Notes: a model not told the origin generated them from the sequence alone. DNA of 64,000 nt from Thermodesulfobacteriota bacterium (GCA_040756315.1 JBFLZI010000001.1:2461-66460); one strand, 5' to 3'. Counted from the first letter of the stretch, positions 823 through 63,037 are shown. A program made the numbers and translations.

Positions 823-1161
823 TTAGTCCTGTCTCCCATAGCACCAAAAAACTGCGGGGATGGTAACGTCACCGGCGGCGGCCACGTCCAGGGTCACTTT
901 GGCGGTCATGGCCCCCGCCACCAGGAGTTCCTTCTCCAGGTTGTGATTCTGGTTTTCGGCCTTGGCCCCGGAATTGTAGAATTCGTAACCGTCCTCATCT
1001 TCCAAGGTCAGGGTGGCGGTAGCGGCAGACCCGGGGATGGTGGGCACTCGCAGGTGCATCAGCCGGACCAGACCTTCCAACACCAGGGGCAAGGAGACCA
1101 CTTGGACCCCGTTCGCAAAGACGAAATTCAGTTTCTTCCTTAAAGCCTGTTCAGCCTTCAT
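823..1161 (-). CDS. hypothetical phage protein
   Basis: 112-aa ORF overlapping the end of the giant ORF by 4 nt. High GC3. No motif recognised. Confidence 0.45.
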   Translation of the reverse strand: MKAEQALRKKLNFVFANGVQVVSLPLVLEGLVRLMHLRVPTIPGSAATATLTLEDEDGYEFYNSGAKAENQNHNLEKELLVAGAMTAKVTLDVAAAGDVTIPAVFWCYGRQD

Positions 1162-10100: not shown

Positions 10101-12998
10101 GGTTTGGGTCGGCAATCGGGCAATGAGTCCTTCAAGTTTAACGATCACCTTGGCAGGTTTGTCTGCATGAGGATTGAAGATTTCCGGCTTACTTTGAATA
10201 TATTGATTGACCCCCAACTCCATGGCATCATAGGCATCCTTGGGAGTGTATTTCCCTTCCGCTTGGGTGCCGCCATAGCTTCTGTCGGCCCAAGCGAAAA
10301 GTTCTTGTGGAGTAATTGGATCCTTAGTTAAATCCAAGAATCCTTTAACCACGCCAGCAATGCGCTTATAAGGTGCTCTTGAAGGTTCAGGAACAGTAAC
10401 CGCCTTTTGGGGCGGCGCAATCCCCGGGGGCAAAGCAGCTTTCCGTTTCGGCTCTTCTCTAAAAAGTTCAGCCTGTTTGGTCTCAGGATATTCCTCCATA
10501 ACTTCAAGAGGAACGGCTTTGCCAGCTTTGTGGGCCTGCAATACTTCCTGGCGGTGAAATTCCAGTTTGGCAGCCTCGGGACTATCGAAATAGATCTCGC
10601 CCGTCTCTGGGTTGGTTAGTAAAGGACCATCTTCGCCTCTTTGGATGGTGACCCTTCCCTGAGAGTCCATTCTCCAATTGGCGACCGGTTCCCCCTCCAC
10701 TTCGGAAAAGAACCATCCTTGCTCGTCCTCTTCCTCCCAGGAATCCAGGAATTCATTCTTGCCCATCTGGTAAGGTTGCCGATATTCTTCTTCCGTGCCA
10801 GGTGCAGCAGAGACAGGACCTTCCTCTTCTGTCGGGCCCGGCGGAACCTCGAACTGCTGTAAGAACGCTTCCATCTTCCCCGGCACGGCATAGGCCACCG
10901 TGGACTGATACCGGGGATGCTCCGGGTCTTCTATGTTGTAAAGCAGCAGCCCGGCGTCTTTCATCTGCCCGGCGTAACTCAACTGCTCCGGGGCCACGCC
11001 GTTTTGCTGAGCGGCCACTTGACGGCCCTGCTCAATAAGCTCGGTGGTCAATCCCGGGGCTGCTTCCGGGGCCTTGACAGGCTCTTCAGGGGTAGGGGTA
11101 ATTACTGGCCCCTCCATTTTAGGGGCCTCCACGGGCATCCCAGGGGGTCGTTTTGTCTCCGGGGCGGCCTGTTCCGCCGCCTCTGCCCCCATCACCCCCA
11201 TGGGCGGGGCGGGGCCAGCCGGTTTGGTCGGCTCCGGGACGGCCCTTTCTGGTGAAGGGGGAGCACCAGGAGGTGCCGCCTCTGCCGCCCCCGGAGCCGG
11301 TATTTCCGGTTTTCTTGCCTGTTCCGCCGCTTCTGCGCCGGAGACCCCCAGGGGAGGCTCCACCACGGGCCGGGGACCTCCAAAGGCCGGGGGCAAGGGC
11401 CGCCTAATGGGCCTGCCCTGTTGATCCACCAATGGCGGTCGGGGAGCTTCCGGACGCCCTTCTAGGGCTTCCCGGCCTTCTCGCAGCCCACGTTCTACCA
11501 GTAACTTTTCATAGGCGTTTCGTTCCCAGGGTTGCTTGGCCAAGGCCGCTTCAAACTCATCCGCTGGCCGCAGGGGCCTTCCAGCAGGCCCCAGAATCTC
11601 CGGCGTCCCCGGGGGGGCCGGTTCGGTAATGGCCGGGGGCCTTCCTTCTTCCGGCAATCTCCCTACATACTCATACCCCGGCAGCACTTCTTCCCTGGGT
11701 GCCGGTGGTGTCACCCTCGCTGGTTCCATGGCCAGGGGCTGGGCCATCCCTGCCTGAATGGTGGGACCGGTGCGGTAAATGGGGAAACCTTCCCGGCCTT
11801 CCGGGACGGCGGCTTGCTCCTCTTTAGCTCCCGCCACTGTTGTTGCAATACGCTCTCTTATGGCCCGGGCCGACCGATGCGCGGCCACTCCCGCCCCGCT
11901 GAGGCCCCCCATGGCCGCGCCCACCAGCACCGCTTCCACCACGTTTTCCGTGAGCTTTTGGTCCGGGTCATAGCCCCACTTACGGAAGGCGTTGCCCACG
12001 ATTTCCTGGGCCCCTTCGGTGGTTCCTTCCGTGGCGATGCTGTCCAGAACCTTATGAACCAGGTTTTGACCGTTCTTGCCCCGGAAGATGCGCTCCAGGG
12101 AAAAGGCTTCCAGGCTGCCGGCCACGATGCCTTTGCCCAGTTCCACCGCCACCCGGCGCCCCCAACTGATAGGCTTGTCCGGGTGCTCTTTTTCCCATTG
12201 GCGCAGGTTGGCTTCCGCCTCCGCTGCTTCCAGGCCCATGGCCGCGGCATAACCGCTGCGGGTGTAGATTTTGTTGATCTTGCCGGCAATCTGGGCCGCT
12301 TCTTCCGACGTCTGGCCCCCTTTTAAGGCCTTCCCCAGACCCATCACTTTTTTGGCCAGGGCCCCCAGGCCAGCCCCATAAAGGAAATATTCGCCGATGC
12401 TCCAGGCTGCTTCCGGCAGACGGGCCGCCCAAAAATGAGGGTTTTTGATGGTTTCGGCCACCTGCCCGGCCACTTCCCCCGGGGCCTCCAGGATCCGGTG
12501 CAGTTCCACCTGGGATTCCGCCGCCTTGGAAGGGCGTAATTCGGGAGATTCCTGGATGGCCTCCAGGGCCTCAATGGGACGAGTCAAGGCGCGCCGCACG
12601 GGACCGATATTCAGGACATCTCCGGCGATGATCTTGGCGGCTTGCAGGGGGAATTTAACCACCTCCAGCGCGCCCCGTCCCACCCCAGCAGCAAATTCCC
12701 CGGCTACCGTCCTCTCCGGCACCGGTTCCTCCAGGCGCAACCGCCTGAGCGCCCCCTCATAGATTTCCTGGGAGCGTCTTTGCTCTTCCGGCGACAAGGC
12801 CTCAAAGGGGACGGGGGCCTCTCCCGGGGGAAGATCCCACCTGGTGGGGGCCGGTTTGGCCAAGCCCGGTTCTCCTTCGGGTATCGCTGGGGCCGCGAGA
12901 GCAATCGAAACAGGCTTCTCCCTCTCCGGTTCCGGAGGTGGAGGAGTCCAAAAGTTCCGGATTCTTTCCAACTCGCTTTCAAAAAGTTCCGGGGACAT
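1158..12998 (-). CDS. giant polyvalent protein (methyltransferase + SF2 helicase + two zincin motifs), 3,946 codons as written; see frame anomaly at 9014-9453
   Basis: Uninterrupted ORF. Motifs: VLEPSAGVGG / NPPF, GDGTGVGKGR / DESH / HRSNQ, HEVFH, HELGH. Glycine-zipper-like N-terminal region and Pro/Ala/Glu-rich linkers. Last gene of the virion operon. Confidence 0.65.
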   Translation of the reverse strand: MSPELFESELERIRNFWTPPPPEPEREKPVSIALAAPAIPEGEPGLAKPAPTRWDLPPGEAPVPFEALSPEEQRRSQEIYEGALRRLRLEEPVPERTVAGEFAAGVGRGALEVVKFPLQAAKIIAGDVLNIGPVRRALTRPIEALEAIQESPELRPSKAAESQVELHRILEAPGEVAGQVAETIKNPHFWAARLPEAAWSIGEYFLYGAGLGALAKKVMGLGKALKGGQTSEEAAQIAGKINKIYTRSGYAAAMGLEAAEAEANLRQWEKEHPDKPISWGRRVAVELGKGIVAGSLEAFSLERIFRGKNGQNLVHKVLDSIATEGTTEGAQEIVGNAFRKWGYDPDQKLTENVVEAVLVGAAMGGLSGAGVAAHRSARAIRERIATTVAGAKEEQAAVPEGREGFPIYRTGPTIQAGMAQPLAMEPARVTPPAPREEVLPGYEYVGRLPEEGRPPAITEPAPPGTPEILGPAGRPLRPADEFEAALAKQPWERNAYEKLLVERGLREGREALEGRPEAPRPPLVDQQGRPIRRPLPPAFGGPRPVVEPPLGVSGAEAAEQARKPEIPAPGAAEAAPPGAPPSPERAVPEPTKPAGPAPPMGVMGAEAAEQAAPETKRPPGMPVEAPKMEGPVITPTPEEPVKAPEAAPGLTTELIEQGRQVAAQQNGVAPEQLSYAGQMKDAGLLLYNIEDPEHPRYQSTVAYAVPGKMEAFLQQFEVPPGPTEEEGPVSAAPGTEEEYRQPYQMGKNEFLDSWEEEDEQGWFFSEVEGEPVANWRMDSQGRVTIQRGEDGPLLTNPETGEIYFDSPEAAKLEFHRQEVLQAHKAGKAVPLEVMEEYPETKQAELFREEPKRKAALPPGIAPPQKAVTVPEPSRAPYKRIAGVVKGFLDLTKDPITPQELFAWADRSYGGTQAEGKYTPKDAYDAMELGVNQYIQSKPEIFNPHADKPAKVIVKLEGLIARLPTQTRRTGESDEFQQFSTPPPLAYIVSWVANINQNDVVLEPSAGVGGLAVFAHNAGAKEVIVNELSPRRAELLREMGFDRVFTENAEQLNNILPKEVRPTVVVMNPPFSATAGRMLGKRMAQMGATHLEQALKRLEPGGRLVAIVGRGMAFDKPAFATWWAKIKKEYQVLANIGVSGKNYGKYGTNFDNQILVIDKTGPTTREPVVGAVEKLADLIPLLEGVKDERLRQVLAREREAQPGTAPEPVGEAGPEEGGRIRGTRPTARPATPGVGPGEREGERATPGRLAPEPVLPVALPEGDRGSHGQLEPGERHAGVRGERGGRRGASGEPHAGRPSGVGGGIGGPTGQPTGRGEIIPGSVRGPVRLEEKKAARPSGELTDAIYEPYQPQRLKVSGAQPHPGWLVQSAAMAAVEPPAPTYKPHLPKEVIDTGKLSESQLEAVVYAGQSHQDILPDGQRRGFFIGDGTGVGKGREIAGIIYDNWNQGRKKAAWISKSTALFKDARRDIEGVGWKPDLVFDLGKIKADSDIKNSQGILFTTYDTLKSAAQAPKGEEVKGKRRLDQIVEWLGEDFDGVVIFDESHEMGSGRSEKGARGYKKPSQKALAGMELQKKLPKARIVYVSATGATKVGNLAYAERLGLWGEGTPFPNREAFISEIESGGVAAMELVARDMKALGVYLARSLAFEVPSQPDQTVTYDRLVHNLTDHQVAIYNEMARAWQVVLQNIHEALRLTEGENSPQARAKAASQFWGSHQRFFNQVITSMQMPSVLEAIKKDLAEGNAVLVQLTNTLEAAQERGLARMADEEELDGLDLTPREALMQYVEHAFPTTQFEPYLDEEGNEKWRAVKDSQGNPVQNAEAVRMKEELLEKLGAIRVPDSPLDMLVNTFGPEAVAEATGRKRRLVKFGGETVLEKRGRAKVEADIGAFLSDKKQILVFSDMAGTGRSFNASYEFKNQRKRIHYGVQLGWRADMAVQKMGRSHRSNQRFAPHYVLVSTNLDGQKRFLSSIARRLDQLGALTKGQRQTGSTGLFQAKDNLEASHAKDALRQFYYELYRGEIPGMNIGTFMEQTGLRLLDKDGNLLQELPPITQFLNRLLSMEVQEQNRTFAAFAERLERAAEVAARRGTLDIGMETLRPDPGGRIEKISEQTVYTDPRTGAETKYVEVDEINPTKIREFEEAEKVGGSKPAFFKNVRSGRIWVREAKSWNDTSESGRVTQYWTLRGVLSRSVRDVEDYHFWDKSKWDLIKDRAIAKQMWQAEIAKAPKEQVERHHLIAGTILPIWDRLTGNTRVIRLQTREGERFIGRRIPERVIGQVLQNLGAKSTTAAKLTPQQVFTNILDSNYVVTLANGWEIKRSRVSGEDRIELKGPDFAHMEELRRAGVFAERIQWDTRFFIPTTEAGPGVIEKIIKHRPVVAATPRAISKARLTIQEDENLRRGAAAMERVISEQTDVPVAMRRDDLGDISFYWGEPGNPAKDFKGGYGVSHIIAKRNAEGEDGEAIARKMVEVIAKGEFRKESGPEGGQRVEIGFDKHIAILSKYRFGEREAWLLTGWREAAPGEPEKVYGSIRPTHKGPTRFRPSMGAGAEEIISPAGKKGKVPTVTKDTIQAAFGPRAKVTESALMPDVHEVTLPNGVRILVRQNADIQVAPEALAAYGKTELARGEVIAGEWRTINGTNLISLAKGEGAESLHHEVFHAAMELALTERERQAVLRKYGNEEAAARAYETWIPEKQPETLFQKILNFFRQIYRAFFPDAEAVFGKMRTGEVWGRKGRLPEGIAPRAKIKEAPGPQEVIDRFKREVVALDQEAARNWRERLKQGWEGFKGLTEDFYSQVVDRWAAWERVAQKAAQAGIAVPAGENVTYNLSFLRGVEGRVRQGISGDYVYHDTLEFDEKLDRLVFTGDAPEAVGPSLVKRLEPLKDLAQKRGESFAQVSGDLFHALMPAQRDLELAGETGVREPGEIKGTHPELSRAALAALKQKYSADYAVLEETAEAMREWGDQMILQPLLQVGFIDQARYEDIKAKNQFYVPFKRLLDDMETYISAHASAAGVKGRVIKKIKGSERQILDPLEMWMELAYKAQFAYARNKVYRGLYVTAQYAEMEDVKEIPAKFVPVDQTLKQEIDEKLRPQIEKLCQAIGVNVRMLYTLGGRVLGRFKAGMRREAGGAYGPEEREIEVRFATTEKVLSHELGHAIDHLANLEDLLINRGTPEMKRELRKIADQRIGEAQVSDYFRRYVRKKEEQVAEFVNRFLTDRETARTLAPNATAVFEKFLQGNEELKPLLDFKPTAQRQLREFYHKIWVRSPLPPEPGCLPYYRDGLMRWLKVPPDLYQAAVNMMPGDIGILMRVAKLPADTLRAGAILVPEFSLGRNPVRDIMQAWLFSRFGFNPAYWWRDTFKLLAKDEQAREFHRQWEAGGGELATLAQAFAKSNRVTADQILNPGKKIRYFAHPIQALRFASAYLENMTRFSIYKQAREKGLSHAEAIHEARRTTLDYSRVGGHPAVRYLGMIIPFFNASIQGIDKMASELAGPNRKAVLKRLTMLTAISLLVWAFASRDKRYKELEDWEKNYFWHLPLGEDGPMLRIPKPFEAGILFGSVPERMMEWALGQKPDMAATMKAVWEAAMPEVVPTIARPLLEMKANYDYFRGRPIEDVAMQRLPVSMRAKPWTTETAKAFSRHFGEPLGISPVMMEHFIRTLGGGLGANYFLPGVDLALRKAGVWEDIPKPAQDAIQQIWGVRAFFTRTPTGNRAKSVNDFFEHYQAAVQADQGWKVLWQQGKAGDLDKFLKEHPEAIFARVARLEMAQMGKLRKERDTIYAAKNLTPEEKQKKLDKIDAQLVVIARRANTFMDPAAAEKVGMPSRSLPGKGHKPIDAKQYYQVAAEATERAYRKLQPSFPRLSEMEAEERQRRIAGAIRTEREETARGLTAVSPRDLLKPFRPGALWDRPTKEEREQAFHIFGGFLKVPAPWMTGFRPSKEHQEARR
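3525..3554 (-). other. zincin HExxH motif 2 (SHELGHAIDH) in the giant ORF
   Basis: HELGH read directly. Confidence 0.45.
5031..5048 (-). other. zincin HExxH motif 1 (LHHEVFHAAMELAL) in the giant ORF
   Basis: HEVFH read directly. Context resembles the metallopeptidase modules of phage/plasmid polyvalent proteins. Confidence 0.45.
7050..8990 (-). other. strawberry-notch/SNF2-like superfamily-2 helicase module of the giant ORF
   Basis: Walker A GDGTGVGKGR (8700-8729), DESH box (8358-8384), C-terminal lobe with MGRSHRSNQ (7161-7175). N-terminal HPGWLVQSAAMAAVEPP segment is typical of this helicase family. Confidence 0.75.
9014..9442 (-). CDS. 142-aa ORF nested in the +1 frame of the giant ORF (helical, unknown function)
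   Basis: ATG 6 nt after GGAGGGGG. An in-frame TAA sits two codons upstream of the ATG (one AAG codon between). G/C at the third codon position is 27/30 in this frame versus 9/30 in the giant frame over the same 30 codons. The balanced protein (MNAYAKYWHEREKLNQ...) contrasts with G/P/R filler in the giant frame. Confidence 0.55.
   Translation of the reverse strand: MNAYAKYWHEREKLNQERPLNQLAKQALKRAGESVEPGQLHVLQLLEWALENGKVKGPPQDALHLSQFYRWHFLKETVEAMGNWNPENVMQVFEESAEGDAGLQANLMPEDPVELAEELVDQLDSRLGAARLYPDQFGVPSD
9510..10090 (-). other. N6-adenine DNA methyltransferase module of the giant ORF
   Basis: Motif I VLEPSAGVGG (~9975-10003) and motif IV NPPF (9789-9800) in gamma-class order. Confidence 0.75.
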
Positions 12999-29177: not shown

Positions 29178-29862
29178 CAGTTAATCCCGCCTGTCGCCAG
29201 GGGGCCGGACTATACCATAACCTCTTGAATCTCAACCTTAGAAAGGTCCAGAATTCCAGAGGTCCTCCTTGGTAGTCTCTGGAGGCTGAATCGACGCTGC
29301 TTCAATGCCTTCAATTCTTCGCTTAACATGGCGAATCTTTCTCTTAGAATGCTCATGTTGCGTCCATTGTTACAGCCCTTCATTGGATGGACGCACAGAC
29401 GCCATTTAATAAACTTCATCATGGCCTGCGCCTCTTCTTTTTTGGCTGTCAAATAAGGCATTGTTTTGGAAAGAATCCTCATTATTCCCCTATAATTTGT
29501 TATTGCCATCGCTAATGATTCCCTATATTGAACTTCACGAGGCTTTATGTAGATTAGAAAGTATTTAACTTTCCATGTTGTCAGGATTTCAGTAATTCGC
29601 CTCATCAAATAGGGATTCGTATTTCTTATTTCAAACCTGGGGCGATAATGAGCAACGTCTCCATTGTGATTCCTGTTATGGCTTACTGAGATACATCCTT
29701 CCCCATCGATAATCCCAGCAAGCCAAGCAGCATCGCGTTCATCCCTGCTGATTGACCCCACCGAACCATTTTCACGCTCTGGTAGGTTCGGATACTCGGG
29801 TTGTTCCAGCACATTCGGAGTTTTCACCATAAAGTCACCTTTATGGGCGGCGTCTAAAGTTC
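29178..29862 (-). ncRNA. group I self-splicing intron (phage td-like appearance) in the capsid gene
   Basis: P GAAUGUGCUGGAAC, Q GUCAAUCAGCAGGG, R CCAGAGACUACC and S AUGGUAUAGUCC occur in order with P4 and P7 complementarity. P2 CCAUAAAG-GUGA-CUUUAUGG. P9 has a GCGA loop. P1 U.G pair, P10 GUCUA/UAGAC and a terminal G are present. GC is ~42% versus ~62% in the flanks. Confidence 0.75.
29210..29830 (-). CDS. LAGLIDADG homing endonuclease (single-motif type)
   Basis: 206 aa with LAGIIDGEG (29696-29722), a low-GC ORF inside the intron. The true start may be an internal GVG GTG. The ATG and its AAAGGUGA lie in the P2 stem. Confidence 0.75.
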   Translation of the reverse strand: MVKTPNVLEQPEYPNLPERENGSVGSISRDERDAAWLAGIIDGEGCISVSHNRNHNGDVAHYRPRFEIRNTNPYLMRRITEILTTWKVKYFLIYIKPREVQYRESLAMAITNYRGIMRILSKTMPYLTAKKEEAQAMMKFIKWRLCVHPMKGCNNGRNMSILRERFAMLSEELKALKQRRFSLQRLPRRTSGILDLSKVEIQEVMV

Positions 29863-33627: not shown

Positions 33628-33899
33628 GGCGACCCTCCTCCTTCTTCAACGCCGGGCCGGTCCCAGCGGATGCGGTCATAGTTTTCCCGGTATCTGTCGC
33701 TGACATGGCGACAGTTGGCCAAATCCCCGGTGGGGTAAGGCGGCTCCCCGTTCCACCCCTTCTCCCCCGGGTCGTAAATTTCCCCGGTGACCATGTTCCG
33801 GAACACTTCCTTGCCCTGCTTCACCCCGTCCCTGTCCTTGCCGGTGTATTGCCTGACCTCCCACCAGCCCTTAAAGCCGCCGGTTTCAAGTTCGGGCAT
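33615..33899 (-). CDS. hypothetical 94-aa protein
   Basis: ATG overlaps the terL stop (TAATG). The upstream part of the track ORF (to 34220) is out of frame inside terL. Confidence 0.45.
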   Translation of the reverse strand: MPELETGGFKGWWEVRQYTGKDRDGVKQGKEVFRNMVTGEIYDPGEKGWNGEPPYPTGDLANCRHVSDRYRENYDRIRWDRPGVEEGGGSPCPQ

Positions 33900-35317
33900 T
33901 ACCGCGTCCCTCCGATGGCGTAAGTCTGGACCCGGCGGCGGGTCTGTTGGGCCAAACGCCGGTAGGTGGCCAGAGAGGCCTTGGTGCCGATGGTGGGCAG
34001 CAGGACGCACACCCCGTTGGCGAAGCAGTCCCCCACATGGCTGGCCTCGTCCTTCTCCGGCACGTTGCTGACGATGTTGCCGGAGTTGTCCGTTTTGTAA
34101 TGCCAGGCGCCGGCCAGGGCCCGGTGCAGCAGTTTCGCCTGCGGATTGATCTGAATGGCGGGCAGGCCCTGAATGTTCATGCCGAAGGCGTTTTTCAGGC
34201 CCAGTTTGATGATGTCCCACTTGTGGGGGCCGGGCTCGAAGCGGGTATTGAAGGCATCCTCAATTACCCGGGCGGCGGTTTCCTGGCGGTTGCTCTGGTC
34301 CGGCTGGCGCATAGTGAAGTCCCCCACGTCCCGCCAGGCCCGGGCCTTGTTCTTCCAGCGGGGGCTTTCCAAAAGGGGCCTGACCTGGGTATTGGCCAGG
34401 ATGCGGATGTCGCTGTTTTCCAGTCTGAGGACGTCGATGAAGATGAGGCGGCCGATGCTGGTGATCTGGCCCAGGATGCAACAGGGGTTGTGCCAGGAGT
34501 CCCAGAGCCGGAAGGAGACCAGGCCGGCAGCCGGCTCTAAAGCGATAGGCGACAGATGCAGGTAAGGGTTGTATTCCGGAGTGACCTTGGCCCCCCGGTA
34601 GATGGGGGCGAACTGGCCCAAAGCATAGCGCATGAAGGAGGCCTGGTCGTGCTTATAGGCGGCGCGCACCGCCTGGCGGGAAGTCTCCGAAACATACGGG
34701 TTCTCGCCGGGCTCGATGCGGAACACGGCTTTGGTGATCAGGGGATTGTCTGGGTCGATGACCTCCGGCTCGATGATGCGCTTGAAAGTCCAATGCTCCT
34801 CATCCGCCGGGTTCATGGAAATTTGCAGGCGGGGCCGGGCGCCTTTCTGCCGGGTGCAGCGCACCAAAGCGGCGTTGAACACCTCCTCCGAGAGCCCGGC
34901 ATTGACCCGGTCCGCCATGGGGGCCGGTTCCTCCAGCCAGATGAGGGCGTATTCCGGACCCTGGAGCTTGGAAAGGCTGCCCAGGTCGTCGATGCCGAAA
35001 AGGTCGCAATCCACCCGGGGCTTGGAATAAATGGTGAGTTGCTTGAAGTCGTTGCGAAATTTAATGAGGTGGGGGTGTTCTTCAAAGATTTCTATAATAG
35101 AACGTGCCGTGGAAGTCTTAATATTTTCGTGGGTATCACGGACAACGGCGCATCTTATTGGTTTGCCGCAGCGTTTGGCATGTTTGACCATGCCGGCAAC
35201 TGAAGCAAATGTCTTTCCTTCGCCGGTGTTACTGTAGATTAAGTTAACAACAGCTTCAGAATTGGCATAAAGACCCTGAGTATCGCCAAGGTCAAAATGA
35301 AGAGGCCCCTCGCTCAT
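33899..35317 (-). CDS. terL: terminase large subunit
   Basis: Walker A SNTGEGKT, Walker B LIWLEE, and a C-terminal nuclease-like half with conserved acidic residues. 472 aa. Confidence 0.8.
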   Translation of the reverse strand: MSEGPLHFDLGDTQGLYANSEAVVNLIYSNTGEGKTFASVAGMVKHAKRCGKPIRCAVVRDTHENIKTSTARSIIEIFEEHPHLIKFRNDFKQLTIYSKPRVDCDLFGIDDLGSLSKLQGPEYALIWLEEPAPMADRVNAGLSEEVFNAALVRCTRQKGARPRLQISMNPADEEHWTFKRIIEPEVIDPDNPLITKAVFRIEPGENPYVSETSRQAVRAAYKHDQASFMRYALGQFAPIYRGAKVTPEYNPYLHLSPIALEPAAGLVSFRLWDSWHNPCCILGQITSIGRLIFIDVLRLENSDIRILANTQVRPLLESPRWKNKARAWRDVGDFTMRQPDQSNRQETAARVIEDAFNTRFEPGPHKWDIIKLGLKNAFGMNIQGLPAIQINPQAKLLHRALAGAWHYKTDNSGNIVSNVPEKDEASHVGDCFANGVCVLLPTIGTKASLATYRRLAQQTRRRVQTYAIGGTR

Positions 35318-35349: not shown

Positions 35350-35369
35350 CAAGTTTTAGCTAAAGCTTG
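35350..35369. promoter_or_regulatory. imperfect 20-bp palindrome (caagttttagctaaagcttg) overlapping the -35 box
   Basis: 18 of 20 positions are self-complementary around the central AGCT. Lies in the divergent terL / AbrB-like intergenic region. Confidence 0.4.
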
Positions 35370-35395
35370 ACACCGGCGCTTTTCTTTAAATAATT
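35367..35395 (+). promoter_or_regulatory. sigma70-like promoter for the plus-strand island operon
   Basis: TTGACA (35367-35372), 17 nt, ATAATT (35390-35395). Confidence 0.5.
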
Positions 35396-35432: not shown

Positions 35433-35627
35433 GTGGAAAAAAATGACGTAGACAAAACTTTTTGTGACACGGGCCTGAAGCCTGCCACCCGTAAGGTGGT
35501 GGAAATCAGCGGCACCTTATATGTTTCCATCCCCAGGAAATTCGCCCAGGCCTTTCAGATCAGGGCCGGGGACCGCCTGATCTTGGTGCCGGGGTCGCCT
35601 ATCAGGATTCTTCCTTACGGAAAATGA
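35433..35627 (+). CDS. AbrB/MazE/SpoVT-type DNA-binding protein
   Basis: 64 aa. YVSIPRKFAQAFQIRAGDRLILV matches the swapped-hairpin pattern. GTG start. Confidence 0.6.
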   Translation: MEKNDVDKTFCDTGLKPATRKVVEISGTLYVSIPRKFAQAFQIRAGDRLILVPGSPIRILPYGK

Positions 35628-35630
35628 CCC

Positions 35631-36002
35631 ATGCCCCGGTTGCCTTTTCCCCTGGAGCATTATTTCGACTTGCGCAAACTGCGGAAGCACTGCCGGCGGC
35701 GGGGCCTGAACGGTTCCGCCCTGGGGCGGCTCCTGGGCCTGTCCCCCGGAGTTATGGCCTATTACTTAAGGGGAGGAGGGCCTCTGCCCCTCTACTGGTT
35801 CCGCCAGGTCTGCGCGGCCCTGGAGCTTGACCCCCTGGAGGTCTGCGAATTGCTGCGGCTACCCGTGCTGGACTGGGGGGAGGTGAACCGGTTCCGGGCC
35901 GCCTGCCGGCGGGCCGGCACCACGCCCTTCCAGGCCTTGCAGGACTTCCTCACGGTCTTTGTTCAGGAGGCCCGGGAGGCCAAAGAAGAGGAAGGCCCCT
36001 GA
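35631..36002 (+). CDS. XRE/Cro-type helix-turn-helix protein
   Basis: LNGSALGRLLGLSPGVMAYYLRGGGPLPLYWFRQVCAALELDP reads as an HTH. Starts 4 nt after the previous stop. Confidence 0.5.
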   Translation: MPRLPFPLEHYFDLRKLRKHCRRRGLNGSALGRLLGLSPGVMAYYLRGGGPLPLYWFRQVCAALELDPLEVCELLRLPVLDWGEVNRFRAACRRAGTTPFQALQDFLTVFVQEAREAKEEEGP

Positions 36003-36003
36003 A

Positions 36004-36603
36004 ATGTTAGAGCAATGGACCCGTTGGCCCCGGAAGGCCAGATTGTTTCTCCTAGCCCTCTATGCCGGCTGGGCCCCGGACCCCCGGCGCACCAGCTTCC
36101 CGGACCGGAAAATCACCCTCAAAAAGGCCTCCCCCGATGGCCGGACCATCTATTACCTGGAGTTCCCGCCCGAAATCAAGACCTTGATCCTGGCAGGTCC
36201 CGATGAAAAGAAACGCCACCTGTCGGTCCTGGCCGAGATCCATTATCGGTCTCTCCGCTTTGACCCCCATGATCCCTTCCGGATTGTCGGCATCCCGCCC
36301 CGGCGCCTGGACTTCGACCTGAAAAAGCCGCACCTGGGCCTTCAATTAGGGGAGGCGGTCGTAAGGGAGGAACAGTGGCTGCAAAAAATCCGGGAGGTCC
36401 TGGCGGGGTTCTTCCGGGAGTTCGGCAGGGCCCCCGGGGCAGAAGAATTCTATGAACAGATCAGGAAGAAAATCAGCTATCATCCCAACTGGGCCCGCCG
36501 CATGGTGCGGAAAGGCCGGGGCCGCTACTGGCAGGCTGTCCTGGAGCCCAACAAGGTCAATCCCCGCTCCCGGGGCTGCATTTACTATTATCCCATTTTT
36601 TAG
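36004..36603 (+). CDS. hypothetical protein
   Basis: Start moved to the ATG at 36004, directly after the previous stop. 199 aa. Confidence 0.5.
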   Translation: MLEQWTRWPRKARLFLLALYAGWAPDPRRTSFPDRKITLKKASPDGRTIYYLEFPPEIKTLILAGPDEKKRHLSVLAEIHYRSLRFDPHDPFRIVGIPPRRLDFDLKKPHLGLQLGEAVVREEQWLQKIREVLAGFFREFGRAPGAEEFYEQIRKKISYHPNWARRMVRKGRGRYWQAVLEPNKVNPRSRGCIYYYPIF

Positions 36604-36640
36604 GGCAGGCCGGGGAATTCTCGTGGGACAAGGAGTCTAA

Positions 36641-36907
36641 TTGGATGTCTGTTGGAGGTTCTATGGGACGCTTTTCGGCTCTCCGCCCGGCCCCGCACCC
36701 GAACCGCTCAAGACCAGGGGCAAAAAGGCGACGGCCAAGGCCGACCCGGATGAGGATGCCAGGCTCCGGGCCGAATGCGCGAAGCTGGCGGAGGAGAAGA
36801 AGGTCCCCTGGGAGGAGATCGCCGGGTTCCCCCCCGGCGAGAGCCTGGACACCGTGCCGGGGTCGGCGCTCCCGGCGCTAAAGCCGTTCCTCTTGTCCCA
36901 AAGCTAA
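36641..36907 (+). CDS. hypothetical 88-aa protein
   Basis: AGGAG, then 5 nt, then a TTG start. High GC3 in this frame only. Confidence 0.45.
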   Translation: MDVCWRFYGTLFGSPPGPAPEPLKTRGKKATAKADPDEDARLRAECAKLAEEKKVPWEEIAGFPPGESLDTVPGSALPALKPFLLSQS

Positions 36908-36953
36908 ACAGCTATCCACATGGAAGTCCGGTTTCTGAGGCTGGGCTTTTTTC

Positions 36954-36983
36954 TTGACAAGTATCTTTTATAGATGCTAATCA
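36954..36983 (+). promoter_or_regulatory. candidate promoter of the cyclase gene
   Basis: TTGACA (36954-36959), 18 nt, TAATCA (36978-36983), in AT-rich DNA. Confidence 0.4.
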
Positions 36984-37090
36984 AAATTTATAAAAAAATC
37001 TAAAAATCTTTTATAATTACGTGGAATTTTTTCTGTCCCTAATTTCTTCTTGGATAAGATTCTTACATAATCTCGAAGGGAGTTGAGACT

Positions 37091-39103
37091 ATGGTAATCT
37101 CAAGGAAAGATAAGCTAAACAATATAAAGTGGGAAAAATATAGTGATTCTCAAGAGTTCAGAGAAAACGTAGAGAAAATTGTTCAAATTGCAATAGAAGA
37201 AGCTGATGCAGAGGTTGGGGTACTTTTTCTTACTCCGGATGGTTTTTTTCTAGAAGCCGCCCATTGGGAGAGAGTAACTCATGAGGCACCCCCGAAGCCA
37301 CCTGCATCTGAACTTCCAGAATACCGTTTGAATTGGAACGAAAAAGACCCTAAAAAACTTGATGGGATTACAGCTTATGTTGCCATTCATCAAAAGGTAG
37401 AAAATTTAAACCAAGATGAAGTCTTTGAGCACCCGGCATGGAAAGGAAAATGGGATGCAGTTTTTTTAGAGGGCGATCGTAAGAAATGTAAAGGAATACT
37501 TGCAATTCCAGTTAAAAGAAAAATAGAGAAAGGGAAGGGAATAGCACGGGTTCATGGGGTTCTAAAAGTTGAAAATCCTAAAAGAGCCACAACATATGGT
37601 CGATTTAAAGAAGAACATGTTAAAGCACTGGAGAAGTTAGCTGATACTATTGCAACCAAGTTGGATCAATTTCCTAATTTTTGGTGTAAATTTGTTCAAA
37701 CTCGAGCCGACATAAAGGTTTCATATCTGGTTGAATTAATGGGAAGAGGCAGGTCCATTAGATATAATATTTCTCAAGGATTAAATTATGTTATAAAGCT
37801 TTTTTCATGTTGGTTAGAATGCCAGACAGGGGTTCATCTCTTTTGGCATTATTGGAAAACCCCAGAATGTCATATCTTAAAGCCTTGGGACTTCGCTGCT
37901 GGAGAACATGAAAATAATCACACAGCTTTGGATAGATCCAATGCCGCAAAGTTAGTTGTCTGGTTAAGGAAATGGATTGGTCCAAAAATTGTGCAACCCG
38001 GATTGCCTATTGATGATGAACTATGGGACTTTCTCTTCCCCGGAATCCCCTATAAGCCACTGGTAGATATAATTCGCCTTAAGAAAGGTAGATATGACTT
38101 AGGAGTTCTTATTTTTCCGCGATCACCACTTTGGGAAAGCGATAATGGATCGATTGATGCCTTGCCATCTGACGATATGCAAATACTCGAAATCTTAACC
38201 CGCCTTACGATGAATGTTGTTTCAATTCTGGGACGTTTTATAGAAGACAAATACGATACCACTGGAGAAAGATACTTACCAAAGTATCGCCTAGGAAGAG
38301 CCCGAAAGACTTGTGCTTTCATGTTTGTTGATATTAGAAATTTTTCCCAGCTTATCCAAATACTTCGTATGATGAGAGAGCCACAACTAATAGAACCTTT
38401 CATGAATAGATATTGTGAAAGAATTGGTGAAATAATAGGAACGTCCCCAATTGGCAGAGTTGACAAATTTTTAGGAGATGGAGTGATTGCGATTTTTGGG
38501 GAAGATTTAGATGACCCTACAGAAAATTATAAAAAGATTGTCGTTGCAGTTAAATGTGCCTTTGATATGATTACCATGTTTGAAGAAATTTATAAGGGGT
38601 GGGTTAAAATTGGGATTGATAAGATAAGTAAACAATATCACAATGCCGATTTGGAAAAGGGATCTATCGAAACAAGTAAATATGAACGTTTCCATGATCT
38701 TAGAAATATTTTCAATGAAGACGTTCAAATTGACCTTGCAATCGGTATTAATATGGGTGAAGTATTTTTTGATTATTTTGGACATGGGAACTACAGAGAA
38801 TATACAGCTATTGGTGATCATGTGAATTTCACTCAAAGGTTGGAAGGAGCTGCTGGTAGATTCGATGAAAAAGAGCGGCGAAAGAGAGGGAATATTTTAA
38901 TAAGTCAAACAGCTTATTACCATTTGTATGAAAATGATTATCTTTTAAACAAAAAAGAGCCAATTTGGCTCAGCTTTGAGGGCTTCGGGTTCGTTTATCC
39001 GGTTTATGAGTTAGAATATACAGATTTAAACCATGAAAAGATAGCGAATACAATTAAAGAGCTTGAAAGGATGCTTAGGAACAAAAGAGAGGCCAGAGCA
39101 TAA
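37091..39103 (+). CDS. GAF-GAF-class III nucleotidyl (adenylyl-type) cyclase
   Basis: Cyclase motifs FVDIRNFS, KFLGDGVIAIFG, YTAIGDHVNFTQRLEG. N-terminal GAF pattern (AEVGVLFL...GILAIPV...VHGVLKVEN...EEHVKALEKLA) and a second GAF-like region. ~36% GC. Confidence 0.75.
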   Translation: MVISRKDKLNNIKWEKYSDSQEFRENVEKIVQIAIEEADAEVGVLFLTPDGFFLEAAHWERVTHEAPPKPPASELPEYRLNWNEKDPKKLDGITAYVAIHQKVENLNQDEVFEHPAWKGKWDAVFLEGDRKKCKGILAIPVKRKIEKGKGIARVHGVLKVENPKRATTYGRFKEEHVKALEKLADTIATKLDQFPNFWCKFVQTRADIKVSYLVELMGRGRSIRYNISQGLNYVIKLFSCWLECQTGVHLFWHYWKTPECHILKPWDFAAGEHENNHTALDRSNAAKLVVWLRKWIGPKIVQPGLPIDDELWDFLFPGIPYKPLVDIIRLKKGRYDLGVLIFPRSPLWESDNGSIDALPSDDMQILEILTRLTMNVVSILGRFIEDKYDTTGERYLPKYRLGRARKTCAFMFVDIRNFSQLIQILRMMREPQLIEPFMNRYCERIGEIIGTSPIGRVDKFLGDGVIAIFGEDLDDPTENYKKIVVAVKCAFDMITMFEEIYKGWVKIGIDKISKQYHNADLEKGSIETSKYERFHDLRNIFNEDVQIDLAIGINMGEVFFDYFGHGNYREYTAIGDHVNFTQRLEGAAGRFDEKERRKRGNILISQTAYYHLYENDYLLNKKEPIWLSFEGFGFVYPVYELEYTDLNHEKIANTIKELERMLRNKREARA

Positions 39104-39143
39104 TGTTCTATTAAATCATACAGTAATAATTTGAAAAAATAAT

Positions 39144-39215
39144 ATGTCCTGAATCAGACTTGATTTGACAGTATCCCTGTAGGTTAGTTTTTGTAACCTC
39201 TCTTCGTCTGACTTT
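39144..39215 (+). terminator. candidate intrinsic terminator after the cyclase gene
   Basis: TCAGAC...GTCTGA enclosing AGGTTA-N7-TAACCT, followed by CTTTTAGTTTTTT. Confidence 0.35.
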
Positions 39216-39254
39216 TAGTTTTTTAATTCGTGCCAAATAAAGGCTGGCCCCTTG

Positions 39255-39506
39255 TTAATCCATTCCCCCCACCCCCAGGGCCGCCGGTGTGTATTCCCGC
39301 AGCAACTCCCGGTTCGCCTTCCGGCAGCGCCCGCAAACATACCGGCCTACCACCTCCGCCCCGCACTTAAGACACTGCCGCACGGTCGAATCCGGAGGAT
39401 TTTCCACCACCGGCGCCTCCATGCAGGCTTCACACTCCCGCTGCCGCCCACTCGTGGGAATGAAATCCTCCCCGCAGGTCTCACATAGTCGGGGCCGATA
39501 GGCCAT
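39255..39506 (-). CDS. cysteine-rich zinc-ribbon protein
   Basis: 83 aa with four CxxC pairs (CETC, CEAC, CLKC, CGRC). Confidence 0.55.
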   Translation of the reverse strand: MAYRPRLCETCGEDFIPTSGRQRECEACMEAPVVENPPDSTVRQCLKCGAEVVGRYVCGRCRKANRELLREYTPAALGVGGMD

Positions 39507-39901: not shown

Positions 39902-40633
39902 TCACCGGGTGATGGAGATCACCCGGGCCTGCACCCGCACCTGCTCCGGTCTGCCCGGTTCACCGGGGCCTGGCTCTTCTTCAGGGCGATATGACCGCTG
40001 AGGTGGTCCAGACCTGGTGGTGATGATGATTTCCGCCCCTTTGTGCTCTTCCACCACCTCCCTGGTCAACTCCATGATCTTGGCGGCCAGTTCCAGGGCC
40101 TTGAGCCGGGTGGCCTCGGACTTGGCCTGGCTCGCCAGGTGCTCCACCATCCGGCCAATCCTCACCTCCGACAGGCCGACGCGCCGAAATATTGCCTTCT
40201 TGTCCAGACGCGAGACGAGCTTCTCCAATATCCGGTTCGCAAGGGCCTTGGCGTGCTCGGTCGACTTGGTTTTGAAGCCTGCCTTTTGAACGGCTTTTTC
40301 TCTGGATACAGAGGTGGAAAGATAAAGCGTGATGAATTTCAGTTCCTGGGAGTTGAATTTACCCTTGAGGTCCACTTCGGGGATGAGGGGAAGGTCCGGT
40401 TCCGGGTCGGGAGGGGGTGGGGAAGGCGGTGATGGGGGTAGGCTGCCCTTAATACCAATATCTTGGTTCTTATCCCTATCAAAGAGATTAATATCATCCT
40501 CAGTAATCCCCTTACTATTAATATATATATTCTCTGGAATATCTATATTGGAAGAAGAGGGCGGATGGTTGGAGGGTGGCAGCTTGGGGTTGCGCCTGGG
40601 GGTCTGGGAGCGGTGGGGGTCTCTCATGGCCAT
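39902..40633 (-). CDS. terS: terminase small subunit
   Basis: ELKFITLYLSTSVSREKAVQKAGFKTKSTEHAKALANRILEK matches the small-terminase HTH pattern. Low-complexity Pro-rich N-terminus. Confidence 0.65.
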   Translation of the reverse strand: MAMRDPHRSQTPRRNPKLPPSNHPPSSSNIDIPENIYINSKGITEDDINLFDRDKNQDIGIKGSLPPSPPSPPPPDPEPDLPLIPEVDLKGKFNSQELKFITLYLSTSVSREKAVQKAGFKTKSTEHAKALANRILEKLVSRLDKKAIFRRVGLSEVRIGRMVEHLASQAKSEATRLKALELAAKIMELTREVVEEHKGAEIIITTRSGPPQRSYRPEEEPGPGEPGRPEQVRVQARVISITR

Positions 40634-56686: not shown

Positions 56687-57883
56687 ATGGCCGGGACGAT
56701 ACGCACCAAAGAAAAATGCCCCAAATGCGGCGGGTCTTATCAAGGCGAACCTCTTCACTGTCCTTCCTGCTTTACCACGCCTGGCCGAGTATTTATCGAT
56801 TTATGGTGGAAAGGGGGGCCCAAAAAGAAGAAGCGGCTCAAGCTCTATTCTGGCAAGGACGGCCACCCCTTGGATTCCTGGGAGCGGGCAAATCGGCTGC
56901 TTACGGCCATCCGGCATGAGATCGACCTGCGCAGCTTCGATCCCAAAAACTATGTGGCCCAGGAGCTTAAACCCTTCTTCATCCCCAATTATATTCATGA
57001 GTGGGTCAAGCGCCGGGAGCAAGATTGCAACCGCCGCCTGATTTCCCGAGCCTACCTGAAGGAATTAAAACGTTACGTCCGGGTATATTTTCTCCCCTTT
57101 TTCGGCAAATTTTCTATCAAAGATCTCCGTAAAAGCCACCTGGACGATTTCGTCCGTTGGCTGCCAGAAAACCTTAGTGCCAAAACCATGCGGAATATCA
57201 TCGGGGTTCTCCGAAAATTGTTCCAGGATGCTTATGACCGGGAAGATATAGCCGCGATGCCTCTTTTTCCCAAAATAGCGAAAGGGGAGTCGGTTACCCG
57301 CTGGCTTAATGAGGAGGAGCAGGCTCATATCTTGGCCCACACCCGGGGTGTCTATCGGGCTTTTTTTACCTTCCTGATGCACACCGGTTGCCGAGGAGGA
57401 GAGGCCCGGGCTTTAAAATGGGAATATGTTGATCTAAAGAACGACGTGGTGACTATCTGCGCAGGATTCGATTTGGGACAGTTTAAGCCATACACTAAAG
57501 AAAGGGAGGTCCGCTATCTGCCCCTGCATCCCGAGGCCCGGACCGCCCTTTTGAGCCTGCCCCGCTCTCTGGCCGGATGGGTATTTGTCAATTCCCGGGG
57601 GCGCCCCCTATCACAGCGGGCGGTATGCACAGCCTGGCAGAAGGCCCGCGAGAAAGCTGGAATTAATGTGACCTGCTATGAAGGTACTAGGCACTCCTTT
57701 GCCAGCCAGGCTATTAATCGGGGCATATCGGAGAGAAAGATAGGGGACTTTCTCGGACACAAGCATTCATCTTCCACCCGGCGCTATGCCAAGATGCGGG
57801 CCGAGGCCCTGCGAGAGGTCCTGGCAGAGTGTCCCCAGACTGTCCCCGGGGACATTGGGGCCATAAATAATATGCCAAAATAA
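56687..57883 (+). CDS. int: tyrosine integrase with N-terminal zinc ribbon
   Basis: CPKCGG...CPSC, GCRGGEARAL (Arg), GTRHSFAS (H-x-x-R), GHKHSSSTRRYAK (His/Tyr). The track start TTG at 56651 is possible. Confidence 0.8.
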   Translation: MAGTIRTKEKCPKCGGSYQGEPLHCPSCFTTPGRVFIDLWWKGGPKKKKRLKLYSGKDGHPLDSWERANRLLTAIRHEIDLRSFDPKNYVAQELKPFFIPNYIHEWVKRREQDCNRRLISRAYLKELKRYVRVYFLPFFGKFSIKDLRKSHLDDFVRWLPENLSAKTMRNIIGVLRKLFQDAYDREDIAAMPLFPKIAKGESVTRWLNEEEQAHILAHTRGVYRAFFTFLMHTGCRGGEARALKWEYVDLKNDVVTICAGFDLGQFKPYTKEREVRYLPLHPEARTALLSLPRSLAGWVFVNSRGRPLSQRAVCTAWQKAREKAGINVTCYEGTRHSFASQAINRGISERKIGDFLGHKHSSSTRRYAKMRAEALREVLAECPQTVPGDIGAINNMPK

Positions 57884-61774: not shown

Positions 61775-63037
61775 ATGACCCGCTGGCGATTCGTCCACGC
61801 CGCCGACCTCCATTTGGACAGCCCTTTTGTGGGTCTGGCGGACTATCACCCCGAGTTGGCCCAGGAGCTGGTGGAGGCCACCTTTGCCAGTTTCCGGGGC
61901 CTCATCGACCTCTGCCTTCAAAGCGAAGCTGCATTCCTATTGCTGGCCGGAGACCTCTTCGACGGTCCCCAACGCAGTCTCAAGGCCCAGTTGCGCCTGC
62001 GGGAGCAGTTGGCCCGGCTGGCCGACGCAGGAATTGAAACCTTCATCGTCCACGGCAATCACGACTATCTGGGGAGCACCGGAATCAACCTGGAGTGGCC
62101 TAACGGGGTGACCGTCTTTCCCGCCTCCGGGGTGGAAATGGCCGAGGTGCGCCGGGGCGGGGAAACCCTGGCCCGCATCTACGGTCTCAGCCACGCCGGC
62201 CCCAGCGAGACCGCCAATCTCACCGAGAGGTTTCCGGTGGCCGAGCATGGCCCTTTCAGCCTCGGCCTCCTGCACGCCAACCTGGACCGGAACCCGGAGC
62301 ATGAAAATTACGCGCCCTGCAGCCTGGCGGACCTGGCCCGGGTTTCCTATGACTATTGGGCCCTGGGGCATATCCATCGCCCGAGCGTCCGGCGGCCTTC
62401 CCAACCCGCGGTGGTCTATGCCGGCAACCCCCAGGGGCGGCACCTGAAGGAATCGGGCCTAAGGGGCTGCTACGTAGTGGAGGTGGACGGCCACGCGGTG
62501 TCGCCCCAATTTCATCCCCTGGGGGTCATTCGTTGGGAGGGGATGGCGGTGGACATCTCCGGCCGGGAGGGTATGGACCAATTGCTGGGGCAGTTGGCAA
62601 ACCTCCTGGAAGAGCAGCGCCCGGCGCCGCCGGCCCACGGGGTCATCCTGCGCCTGTCTTTGAAGGGCCGGGGGCCGGTGCACCGGGAACTGAAACTCCC
62701 GGGGACCCTGGAGGAGGTCCTGGAAGTGCTCCGGGAACAGGGCCGGGGCCAATCCCCCTGGGTTTGGCCGGAGGGCCTGGAGGCCGCCACCGGGCTGGAC
62801 TGGGACCTGCCGGCCTTGCGCCAGGGCTCCGATCTGGTGGCCACCTTGCTGGAACAACTGCACCAGGCCCGGCAAGCCCAGGAGATGCCGAGGGAGATGC
62901 AGGAACTGTTGGCGCCTTTATACCAGCATCCATCAGGCCGGCGCTATCTGACCCCTCTGTTGGACCTTCCCTGGCAGGACCTCCTGGACCGAGTAACCGA
63001 AGAGCTTTTGGGCCGCCTCCGGGGAGGCCCGGAGTGA
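61775..63037 (+). CDS. SbcD/Mre11-family metallophosphoesterase (DNA repair exonuclease)
   Basis: FVHAADLHLDSPF, LLAGDLFD, IVHGNHD. Confidence 0.75.
   Translation: MTRWRFVHAADLHLDSPFVGLADYHPELAQELVEATFASFRGLIDLCLQSEAAFLLLAGDLFDGPQRSLKAQLRLREQLARLADAGIETFIVHGNHDYLGSTGINLEWPNGVTVFPASGVEMAEVRRGGETLARIYGLSHAGPSETANLTERFPVAEHGPFSLGLLHANLDRNPEHENYAPCSLADLARVSYDYWALGHIHRPSVRRPSQPAVVYAGNPQGRHLKESGLRGCYVVEVDGHAVSPQFHPLGVIRWEGMAVDISGREGMDQLLGQLANLLEEQRPAPPAHGVILRLSLKGRGPVHRELKLPGTLEEVLEVLREQGRGQSPWVWPEGLEAATGLDWDLPALRQGSDLVATLLEQLHQARQAQEMPREMQELLAPLYQHPSGRRYLTPLLDLPWQDLLDRVTEELLGRLRGGPE

Follow-up and report, generated by a model that had tools for sequence, protein, structure and literature searches.

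What is a sensor-linked nucleotide cyclase doing, alone, in a prophage? The question is raised by a stretch of 64,000 nucleotides from a Thermodesulfobacteriota bacterium (GCA_040756315.1, JBFLZI010000001.1:2461-66460), here called the window, in which a low-GC island with a single gene lies within a phage of about 60% GC. The gene encodes a class III nucleotide cyclase of 670 amino acids (aa) with two GAF-type domains in front of its catalytic domain, and no effector gene accompanies it. The original prediction, made from this sequence, placed the gene outside the cyclase-effector paradigm. That placement does not survive a survey of the gene's homologues, beside several of which the membrane proteins PycTM or 8xMP are found. 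The window gene is for this reason best seen as the orphaned half of a system like Pycsar (an antiphage resistance system built on pyrimidine cyclases) and not as a self-contained new kind. We hold with moderate confidence that it is the sensor-cyclase half of such a two-gene abortive-infection system, captured alone, recently and by horizontal transfer, without its membrane effector.

The cyclase gene (37091..39103, plus strand) is the only substantial open reading frame (ORF) of the island, as had been claimed, and its product is identical to database protein P0001, which comes from a 74-kb contig of a metagenome-assembled genome (MAG) and is annotated 'adenylate/guanylate cyclase domain-containing protein [Thermodesulfobacteriota bacterium]'. 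The protein has no match in NCBIfam, and Pfam Guanylate_cyc (PF00211) is found on aa 406-625 (3.3e-9; 37 bits against a gathering cut-off of 21.9 bits). Together with alignments to CyaB, CyaC and Cya2, this match delimits a catalytic domain of about aa 405-645 (38303..39025, plus strand). The nearest solved sequences are CyaB and CyaC, both class IIIb adenylyl cyclases, and Cya2; a search of the Protein Data Bank (PDB) with the family profile gives 3e-18 for CyaB and 4e-16 for CyaC, and the target-normalised TM-scores to the three proteins are 0.71-0.76 in Foldseek, which indicates a cyclase-homology fold. A CBASS (an antiphage signalling system based on cyclic oligonucleotides) assignment was rejected because the enzyme has the wrong fold, that of a class III cyclase and not of a cGAS/DncV-like CD-NTase, and PADLOC returned PycC models only. 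The cyclase domain contains a family-specific insertion of about 37 residues (aa 510-546; 38618..38728, plus strand), evident as a gap in the PDB alignments. Its length varies among the homologues, its end is marked by an invariant FNE motif, and the model confidence (pLDDT) falls below 50 at aa 510-532.

The class III motifs named in the original prediction are intact and contain all the catalytic residues: FVDIRNFS (D414), KFLGDG (K459 and D463) and HVNFTQRLEG (N579 and R583). The two metal-binding Asp residues (D414 and D463) and the Asn and Arg of the transition state (N579 and R583) align with their equivalents in CyaB, CyaC and Cya2, and in the family alignment these four residues are invariant, as are K459 and T572. 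The specificity pair had been called adenylyl-type with Lys and Asp. It is indeed adenylyl-like, but its second member is Thr572, located within YTAIGD and aligned to the class IIIb Thr. At the position of K459, CyaB, CyaC and 6fht, an adenylyl-cyclase variant obtained by engineering, likewise have Lys, and the guanylyl cyclase Cya2 (2w01) has Glu. Class IIIb cyclases have Thr at the second base-specifying position. Because K459 aligns with the adenylyl Lys and T572 lies at the class IIIb Thr site, the pair is predicted to favour the conversion of ATP into cyclic AMP (cAMP), a pyrimidine product being possible too; the uridylate cyclase AnPycC likewise needs a Lys for production of cyclic UMP (cUMP) (PMC11224242).

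The N-terminal part of the protein is less easily recognised by sequence profiles than by structure. In an AlphaFold2 model built with 18 homologues (mean pLDDT 79.9), about aa 20-193 and 223-385 fold into two alpha/beta domains of the GAF type, and a long helix leads on into the cyclase. GAF domain A (37148..37669, plus strand) is drawn from the secondary structure of the model and a Pfam GAF_2 match of 3e-4, below the cut-off; it has a homologue in the first GAF domain of distant, split relatives, which scores 1.4e-21 with Pfam GAF. GAF-like domain B (37757..38245, plus strand), which closes with the long helix (aa 360-385), has no Pfam match and is defined by the model and by Foldseek. The Foldseek matches include the tandem GAF modules of PDE5A (3lfv) and CyaB2 (1ykd), over about 390-415 columns, and the phytochrome-cyclase 6fht, which is aligned over its full length. 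Because the model and the Foldseek matches agree, the description of a tandem-GAF class III cyclase stands, and with it the earlier reading of the N-terminal ~400 aa as two GAF-like domains.

How widespread is this protein, and what does it travel with? Searching 5.8 billion clusters, we found a family of about 19 full-length proteins, 38-60% identical and all from metagenomes or MAGs; the N-terminal module has four representatives at E <1e-30 among 1.84 billion proteins. In the GTDB species representatives, the family is found in only two genomes, an Ignavibacteria MAG with the full-length protein and a Desulfobacca MAG in which a contig end cuts it short. No family member was found in IMG/VR or among the GenBank phages, the latter giving distant matches to the cyclase domain only. 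The cyclase gene has a lower GC content than its own flanks in 5 of 7 other family loci.

PycTM adjoins the cyclase gene in four homologous loci, and its position varies. Beside P0009 (locus L001), a 168-aa PycTM is encoded immediately downstream on the same strand, after a gap of 87 nucleotides, the pair spanning 10001-12598 of the locus. A 173-aa PycTM is convergent and downstream of P0016 (L011), the cyclase itself being split, and one of 181 aa is upstream of and divergent from P0003 (L192), a protein with 58% identity to that of the window. In the fourth locus, that of P0017 (L007/L096), PycTM is present in three pieces around an insertion sequence (IS) element. These neighbours match Pfam PF18967. 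The copies in L001 and L011, which the PADLOC scan took in, also match PADLOC PycTM (1e-27 to 1e-30), and the copy in L192 is assigned by its PF18967 match only. In place of PycTM, the 8xMP membrane protein (PF24838, 1.4e-26) is encoded directly downstream of P0018 (L004, 12143-12736), and a weak 8xMP match is located about 900 nucleotides downstream of P0004, the closest relative at 60% identity (L189, 3186-3905). Elsewhere the neighbours are less clear: a weak CBASS-type 2TM-effector-like protein upstream and toxin-antitoxin genes downstream of P0013 (L002), two proteins with multiple transmembrane (TM) segments upstream of P0012 (L005), and no recognisable effector at P0014 (L008) or P0007 (L095). 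The candidate defence gene PDC-S60, toxin-antitoxin genes and transposases are also found among the neighbours of family members. A neighbour-joining tree places the window protein amid PycTM-linked members, and the basal clade too contains PycTM-linked members; the pairing therefore looks ancestral.

8xMP, named 'octameric membrane protein', may be an unrecognised effector that responds to cyclic mononucleotides (cNMPs). A profile-profile comparison, in which the profiles were very thin, found no kinship between 8xMP and PycTM, and our literature search on 8xMP returned nothing relevant. We also observed, in the island that carries P0014 (L008/L009/L010, ~3400-6000), a 468-aa cyclase-TPR-S protein and a 132-aa ThsB-type TIR protein; this island may hold a second cyclase-based system.

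These neighbourhoods resemble Pycsar, in which several clades of PycC cyclases are associated with PycTM or PycTIR effectors (PMC11224242), a further clade, F, having been found by a domain-centric search (PMC13069673). The family shares with Pycsar an enzyme of class III fold, the two-gene layout with PycTM beside the cyclase, and contexts of the defence-island or mobile type; the window cyclase itself is matched by PADLOC PycC models (best 1.3e-13), which however also match relatives of the signalling type. It differs from Pycsar in several respects. The family cyclase carries a tandem-GAF sensor of about 400 aa, which is not reported for the PycC clades; its catalytic domain is class IIIb adenylyl-like, with a Lys/Thr pair that suggests a purine product as opposed to the cyclic CMP (cCMP) or cUMP of Pycsar; 8xMP replaces PycTM in some loci; and the window copy has neither PycTM nor PycTIR. 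A purine signal has a parallel in Pucsar, which makes cyclic GMP (cGMP) and whose cyclases are described as stand-alone; in the same study ATP-preferring clades are predicted, cAMP signalling is called possible, and the TM effector is identified as belonging to the pJV1-spdB3 family (bioRxiv 10.64898/2026.08.12.744502). Pucsar and the present family are thus alike in concept, a Pycsar-like cyclase signalling with a cyclic purine to a pJV1-spdB3-type TM effector; the stand-alone cGMP cyclases of Pucsar, comparing the clades by description only, differ from the family in that no GAF fusion is described for them. The term 'GAF' does not occur in the text of either bioRxiv 10.64898/2026.08.12.744502 or PMC13069673.

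Does the window hold a partner for its cyclase? The search covered all 64 kb, including about 6 kb of host DNA. Using tblastn and a PycTM hidden Markov model (HMM) on ORFs and on all six frames, with filters off, we obtained no PycTM match below E = 1, and tblastn gave no 8xMP match below E = 1. The Pfam families for cNMP-binding, TIR and PycTM domains were absent from the called genes at ~27-64 kb and from ten large ORFs at 1-26 kb. The absence of an adjacent effector, which the original prediction had noted, thus extends to the whole window. An effector remnant in or beside the island was considered and rejected: the 183-nucleotide and 147-nucleotide flanks that the island leaves on either side of the gene contain no ORF of at least 50 aa (the longest is no more than 47 aa), and there is no PycTM or 8xMP trace in the window.

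From the architecture, the two GAF domains of the family would form a ligand-sensing module, and the long helix out of domain B would relay the signal to the class IIIb-type cyclase domain, which is expected to act as an obligate dimer. The product would be a 3',5'-cyclic mononucleotide, probably cAMP. In complete loci, the signal would be read by the adjacent small membrane protein, either PycTM (a pJV1-spdB3-type TM effector) or a member of the 8xMP family, and this effector would permeabilise the membrane and so abort the infection. In the prophage copy the enzyme looks intact and there is no dedicated executioner in cis, so that the module would be incomplete and the cyclase should not be able to carry out abortive infection by itself.

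An intact enzyme without an executioner could still serve defence if the effector were supplied in trans, that is, if the prophage sensor-cyclase activated a chromosomal PycTM, 8xMP or cNMP-binding effector and made the lysogen immune to superinfecting phages. The ORF is intact with every catalytic and family-invariant residue kept, and it occupies a variable cargo slot of the type in which prophages carry accessory genes. Furthermore, since the effectors of the family vary in position (upstream, downstream or convergent) and in type (PycTM or 8xMP), the pairing seems to be modular. Against these points, the 64 kb with their ~6 kb of host DNA contain no effector, and known Pycsar pairs are specific and made of neighbouring genes: when Pycsar components of the Liu-DS6 operon were combined in chimeric pairings with components of the co-encoded type IV Thoeris, no protection resulted (PMC13069673). 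With about 19 members in 5.8 billion clusters, the family is also so rare that a matching effector already resident in the host would be a coincidence. We therefore regard activation of an effector in trans as unlikely.

It could be argued that the gene has nothing to do with immunity and is a stand-alone signalling or lysogenic-conversion gene, whose GAF-regulated cAMP (or cGMP) acts on CRP/FNR-type receptors and alters host physiology or the lysis-lysogeny decision. The catalytic domain, with its adenine-type Lys/Thr signature, is most like those of CyaB and CyaC, which are physiological class IIIb enzymes, and in its layout the protein resembles the tandem-GAF cyclase CyaB2 of cyanobacteria and the cyclases linked to phytochromes. 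CyaB1/CyaB2 (1ykd), 6fht and bPAC are, like the family, sensor-linked class III cyclases, the family having the order GAF-GAF, helical linker, cyclase; the Foldseek matches cover both the tandem-GAF module and the whole sensor-cyclase layout. Activation is expected to be allosteric and to pass through the linker helix. The window protein differs from CyaB1/CyaB2 in that it has no PAS domain and that its GAF domains are only marginally similar in sequence, and the family differs from them in its mobile or defence-like, PycTM-paired context, which is not that of housekeeping signalling. A lone phage-borne cyclase also has a precedent, though an unrelated one: the Pelagibacter phage HTVC008M encodes a 611-aa 'adenylate/guanylyl cyclase' of class III with no adjacent effector. 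It is 24.5% identical to the window protein over the catalytic domain only, has a different N-terminal region, and belongs to a lytic myovirus, unlike the prophage moron studied here. The record of 'Acinetobacter phage MD-2021a' (CAKLQH020000011.1 / CAKLQF020000009.1) was considered as a further phage-borne cyclase; its cyaA is neighboured by mfd, hscA, a ferredoxin gene and a HIT protein gene, a context that looks like a bacterial chromosome, and the record was therefore not counted.

Several observations that speak for signalling also weigh against the Pycsar-like reading. Recognisable PycTM or 8xMP is lacking in 4 of the 11 informative loci (P0007, P0012, P0013 and P0014), so that the cyclase may also work alone or with other partners. 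In distant relatives of about 30% identity (L097-L101, L102, L137 and L014), the modules are distributed over three genes, which encode a GAF-GAF-HATPase histidine kinase, a receiver, and a region of about 200 aa resembling GAF domain B joined to the cyclase. These operons look like ordinary signalling, and their existence suggests a two-component signalling operon as the origin of the fused, defence-linked family. The PADLOC PycC models match these signalling-type relatives equally well and so do not discriminate. In the family-profile search of the PDB, PaPycC (6yii) scores just 4.7e-4 and BcPycC, EaPycC and AnPycC are not matched at all; sequence comparison puts the catalytic domain far nearer to the physiological adenylyl cyclases of class IIIb than to the solved PycC proteins. 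Lastly, a useless remnant would not be expected to keep an intact ORF, though recent acquisition would explain this as well.

What opposes a purely signalling role is the company that the family keeps. PycTM adjoins four independent members and others are found in defence-island contexts, which would be unexpected for a housekeeping enzyme. Rare and scattered patchily over the phyla, with a foreign composition in most loci, the family looks like that of a mobile defence gene, and its absence from every other phage in IMG/VR and GenBank does not favour a lysogenic-conversion function. Homologues that are ordinary chromosomal signalling proteins with no phage association would have counted against the original prediction; the homologues found do lack that association in the two phage collections, but the islands in which they lie are foreign, with transposases, toxin-antitoxin and defence genes, and are not those of ordinary housekeeping signalling. 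In our opinion stand-alone signalling is doubtful, though somewhat less so than activation in trans. Improbable as a whole, in our view, is a more far-reaching reading in which the family with PycTM or 8xMP represents an undescribed Pycsar-like clade, signalling with cAMP or another cyclic purine and using its tandem GAF domains as a small-molecule sensor of infection, of which the prophage copy would be a deliberate stand-alone sensor driving a host receptor for superinfection exclusion or lysis-lysogeny control, a cyclase-only cargo undescribed for prophages.

If the gene is the orphaned half of a Pycsar-like system, how did it come to lie in this phage? The island (36908..39250; GC content about 0.37) is conspicuous by composition, and the early description of a ~2.3-kb low-GC segment is borne out. 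In 400-nucleotide windows, the GC content is 0.33-0.41 at ~36900-39250, 0.58-0.62 before this stretch and 0.57-0.62 after it. The GC content at third codon positions (GC3) of the cyclase gene is 0.295, compared with 0.67-0.83 in the genes for the large terminase subunit (TerL), the portal, p214, the small-terminase-like protein (TerS) and the host cytochrome bd subunit I, which indicates that the island is foreign to phage and host alike and has not been ameliorated. Its left edge is located directly after the stop codon of an 88-aa ORF (36641-36907), and its right edge just before the stop codon of a convergent ORF for an 83-aa zinc-ribbon protein (39255-39506, minus strand). No direct or inverted repeats border the island, where only short chance matches were seen, and its DNA likeness to the homologous loci is limited to the coding sequence, ending at the boundaries of the latter.

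The island had been credited with promoter-like and terminator-like signals of its own. Such elements are present, but they are weak. An AT-rich, promoter-like region upstream of the gene (36954..37017, plus strand) contains TTGACA (36954-36959) and TATAAT (37012-37017); the two hexamers lack canonical spacing, and a consensus scan found no well-spaced sigma-70 pair there. At the left edge of the island, RNA folding shows a terminator-like hairpin of 10 bp, with G-U pairs allowed, and a U-run (36925..36953, plus strand). It probably ends the upstream AbrB-HTH-p214-p88 transcription unit, although this is only suggestive, the hairpin being no better than shuffled sequence (z = -0.9). A long terminator-like hairpin followed by a U-rich tract (approximately 39156..39225, plus strand) is located 3' of the cyclase stop codon and is likewise not better than shuffled sequence. 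As signals of an independent promoter and terminator for the cyclase gene, these elements are indistinguishable from shuffled sequence. A Shine-Dalgarno-like AAGGGAG (37076..37082, plus strand) is located 8 nucleotides 5' of the ATG.

These features bear on the possibility that the gene is inert hitchhiker DNA, taken up by illegitimate recombination, not usefully expressed and heading for loss. Its composition is not ameliorated (GC3 0.295), no partner gene is present, and the promoter and terminator signals are weak. Split or broken genes are moreover common in the family, the cyclases of P0016 and P0018 being split and the PycTM beside P0017 being broken. At 205 conserved columns, the window protein shows 13 deviations, the second-highest number in the family; in a relaxed-constraint test, this number is only mildly raised. 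On the other hand, the deviations are mostly conservative and none of them is at a catalytic residue, the 670-codon frame has no interruption, despite the ease with which stop codons appear in AT-rich sequence, and the Shine-Dalgarno sequence is good and correctly spaced to the start codon. That the gene is mere hitchhiking DNA thus seems very unlikely.

The element around the island is an integrated prophage of a sulfate-reducer-type bacterium. Its integrase (56870..57883, plus strand; Pfam Phage_integrase) is followed from ~58058 by the host chromosome, on which acetolactate decarboxylase, cytochrome bd II/I, SbcD (61775-63037) and SbcC, a multi-PAS sensor and MalQ are encoded. There is no tRNA gene in the window; the attachment site is therefore not a tRNA on the integrase side. 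The phage genes include those for TerL, a portal-like protein, a small-terminase-like protein and a RuvC-like resolvase, and further prophage genes encode RecT/YqaJ, a UvrD-type helicase, SSB and a DnaC-like protein.

The cyclase gene occupies a slot between the two terminase genes. TerL (33899..35317, minus strand; Pfam Terminase_3 and PHROGs) is the left anchor and the small-terminase-like protein (39902..40633, minus strand; PHROG 51, weak) is the right anchor. Between TerL and the island, a native high-GC cassette (35433..36907, plus strand) runs divergently from TerL and consists of an AbrB/MazE-like gene (35433-35627), an HTH_31 gene (35631-36002), p214 (35959-36603) and p88 (36641-36907), the domains being assigned by Pfam. 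On the other side of the island, the convergent zinc-ribbon gene (39255..39506, minus strand) is again of high GC content; its product matches PHROG 1333 and has an HNH-like C-terminus. TerL is 51-73% identical in 12 IMG/VR phages, with which the portal and the divergent AbrB/HTH genes are also common. The cyclase, p214, p88 and zinc-ribbon genes are absent from all 12 of these phages. TerS homologues are located 5' of TerL in three related loci (L176, L182 and L185), and the TerS-TerL gap in related phages ranges from 1.1 to 4.8 kb, with contents that differ from phage to phage. Because the cyclase gene is absent from the relatives and the gap is variable, the island is a strain-specific cargo in a variable slot and a moron in the usual sense, as had been proposed.

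A strong sigma-70-like promoter, TTGACA-16-AATAAT, matching at 11 of 12 positions, was found at 35367-35394 (plus strand), 5' of the AbrB/MazE-like and HTH_31 gene pair, which is conserved beside TerL in several related phages; read-through from this promoter could drive the cyclase gene. The pair may act as a switch, resemble a toxin-antitoxin pair or regulate the cargo. Three further observations were made elsewhere in the prophage. Residues 389-469 of TerL give a sub-threshold match to Amidase_2 (N-acetylmuramoyl-L-alanine amidase; 8e-4, 20 bits against a 26-bit cut-off), which is unusual and probably spurious. A second low-GC patch among the structural genes (29210-29830, minus strand; GC 0.43, GC3 0.45) codes for a protein of 206 aa that matches LAGLIDADG_1 weakly; the patch is probably a homing-endonuclease insertion. 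Positions 1158-12998 (minus strand) encode a 3946-aa 'polyvalent protein' that combines a Strawberry-notch-type helicase (AAA_34, 4.5e-116; Helicase_C_4) with a PBECR1 nuclease domain and LPD38; giant proteins with many domains like this one are a usual feature of phages and conjugative elements.

To our knowledge, how Pycsar cyclases detect infection is still unknown. The fusion of a tandem-GAF module to a cyclase that is paired with PycTM would offer a way into the Pycsar trigger, the GAF ligand being biochemically identifiable. The class IIIb active site raises the question of whether abortive infection could be signalled by cAMP and how such a signal would then be insulated from housekeeping cAMP. 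For annotation, the lesson is to consult the neighbourhoods of the homologues first, and only then to decide whether a lone prophage cyclase represents a system of a new kind. The prophage copy itself would represent a natural 'effector-less' variant, which may show either that such systems fall apart in transfer or that a sensor-cyclase alone can be a useful cargo.

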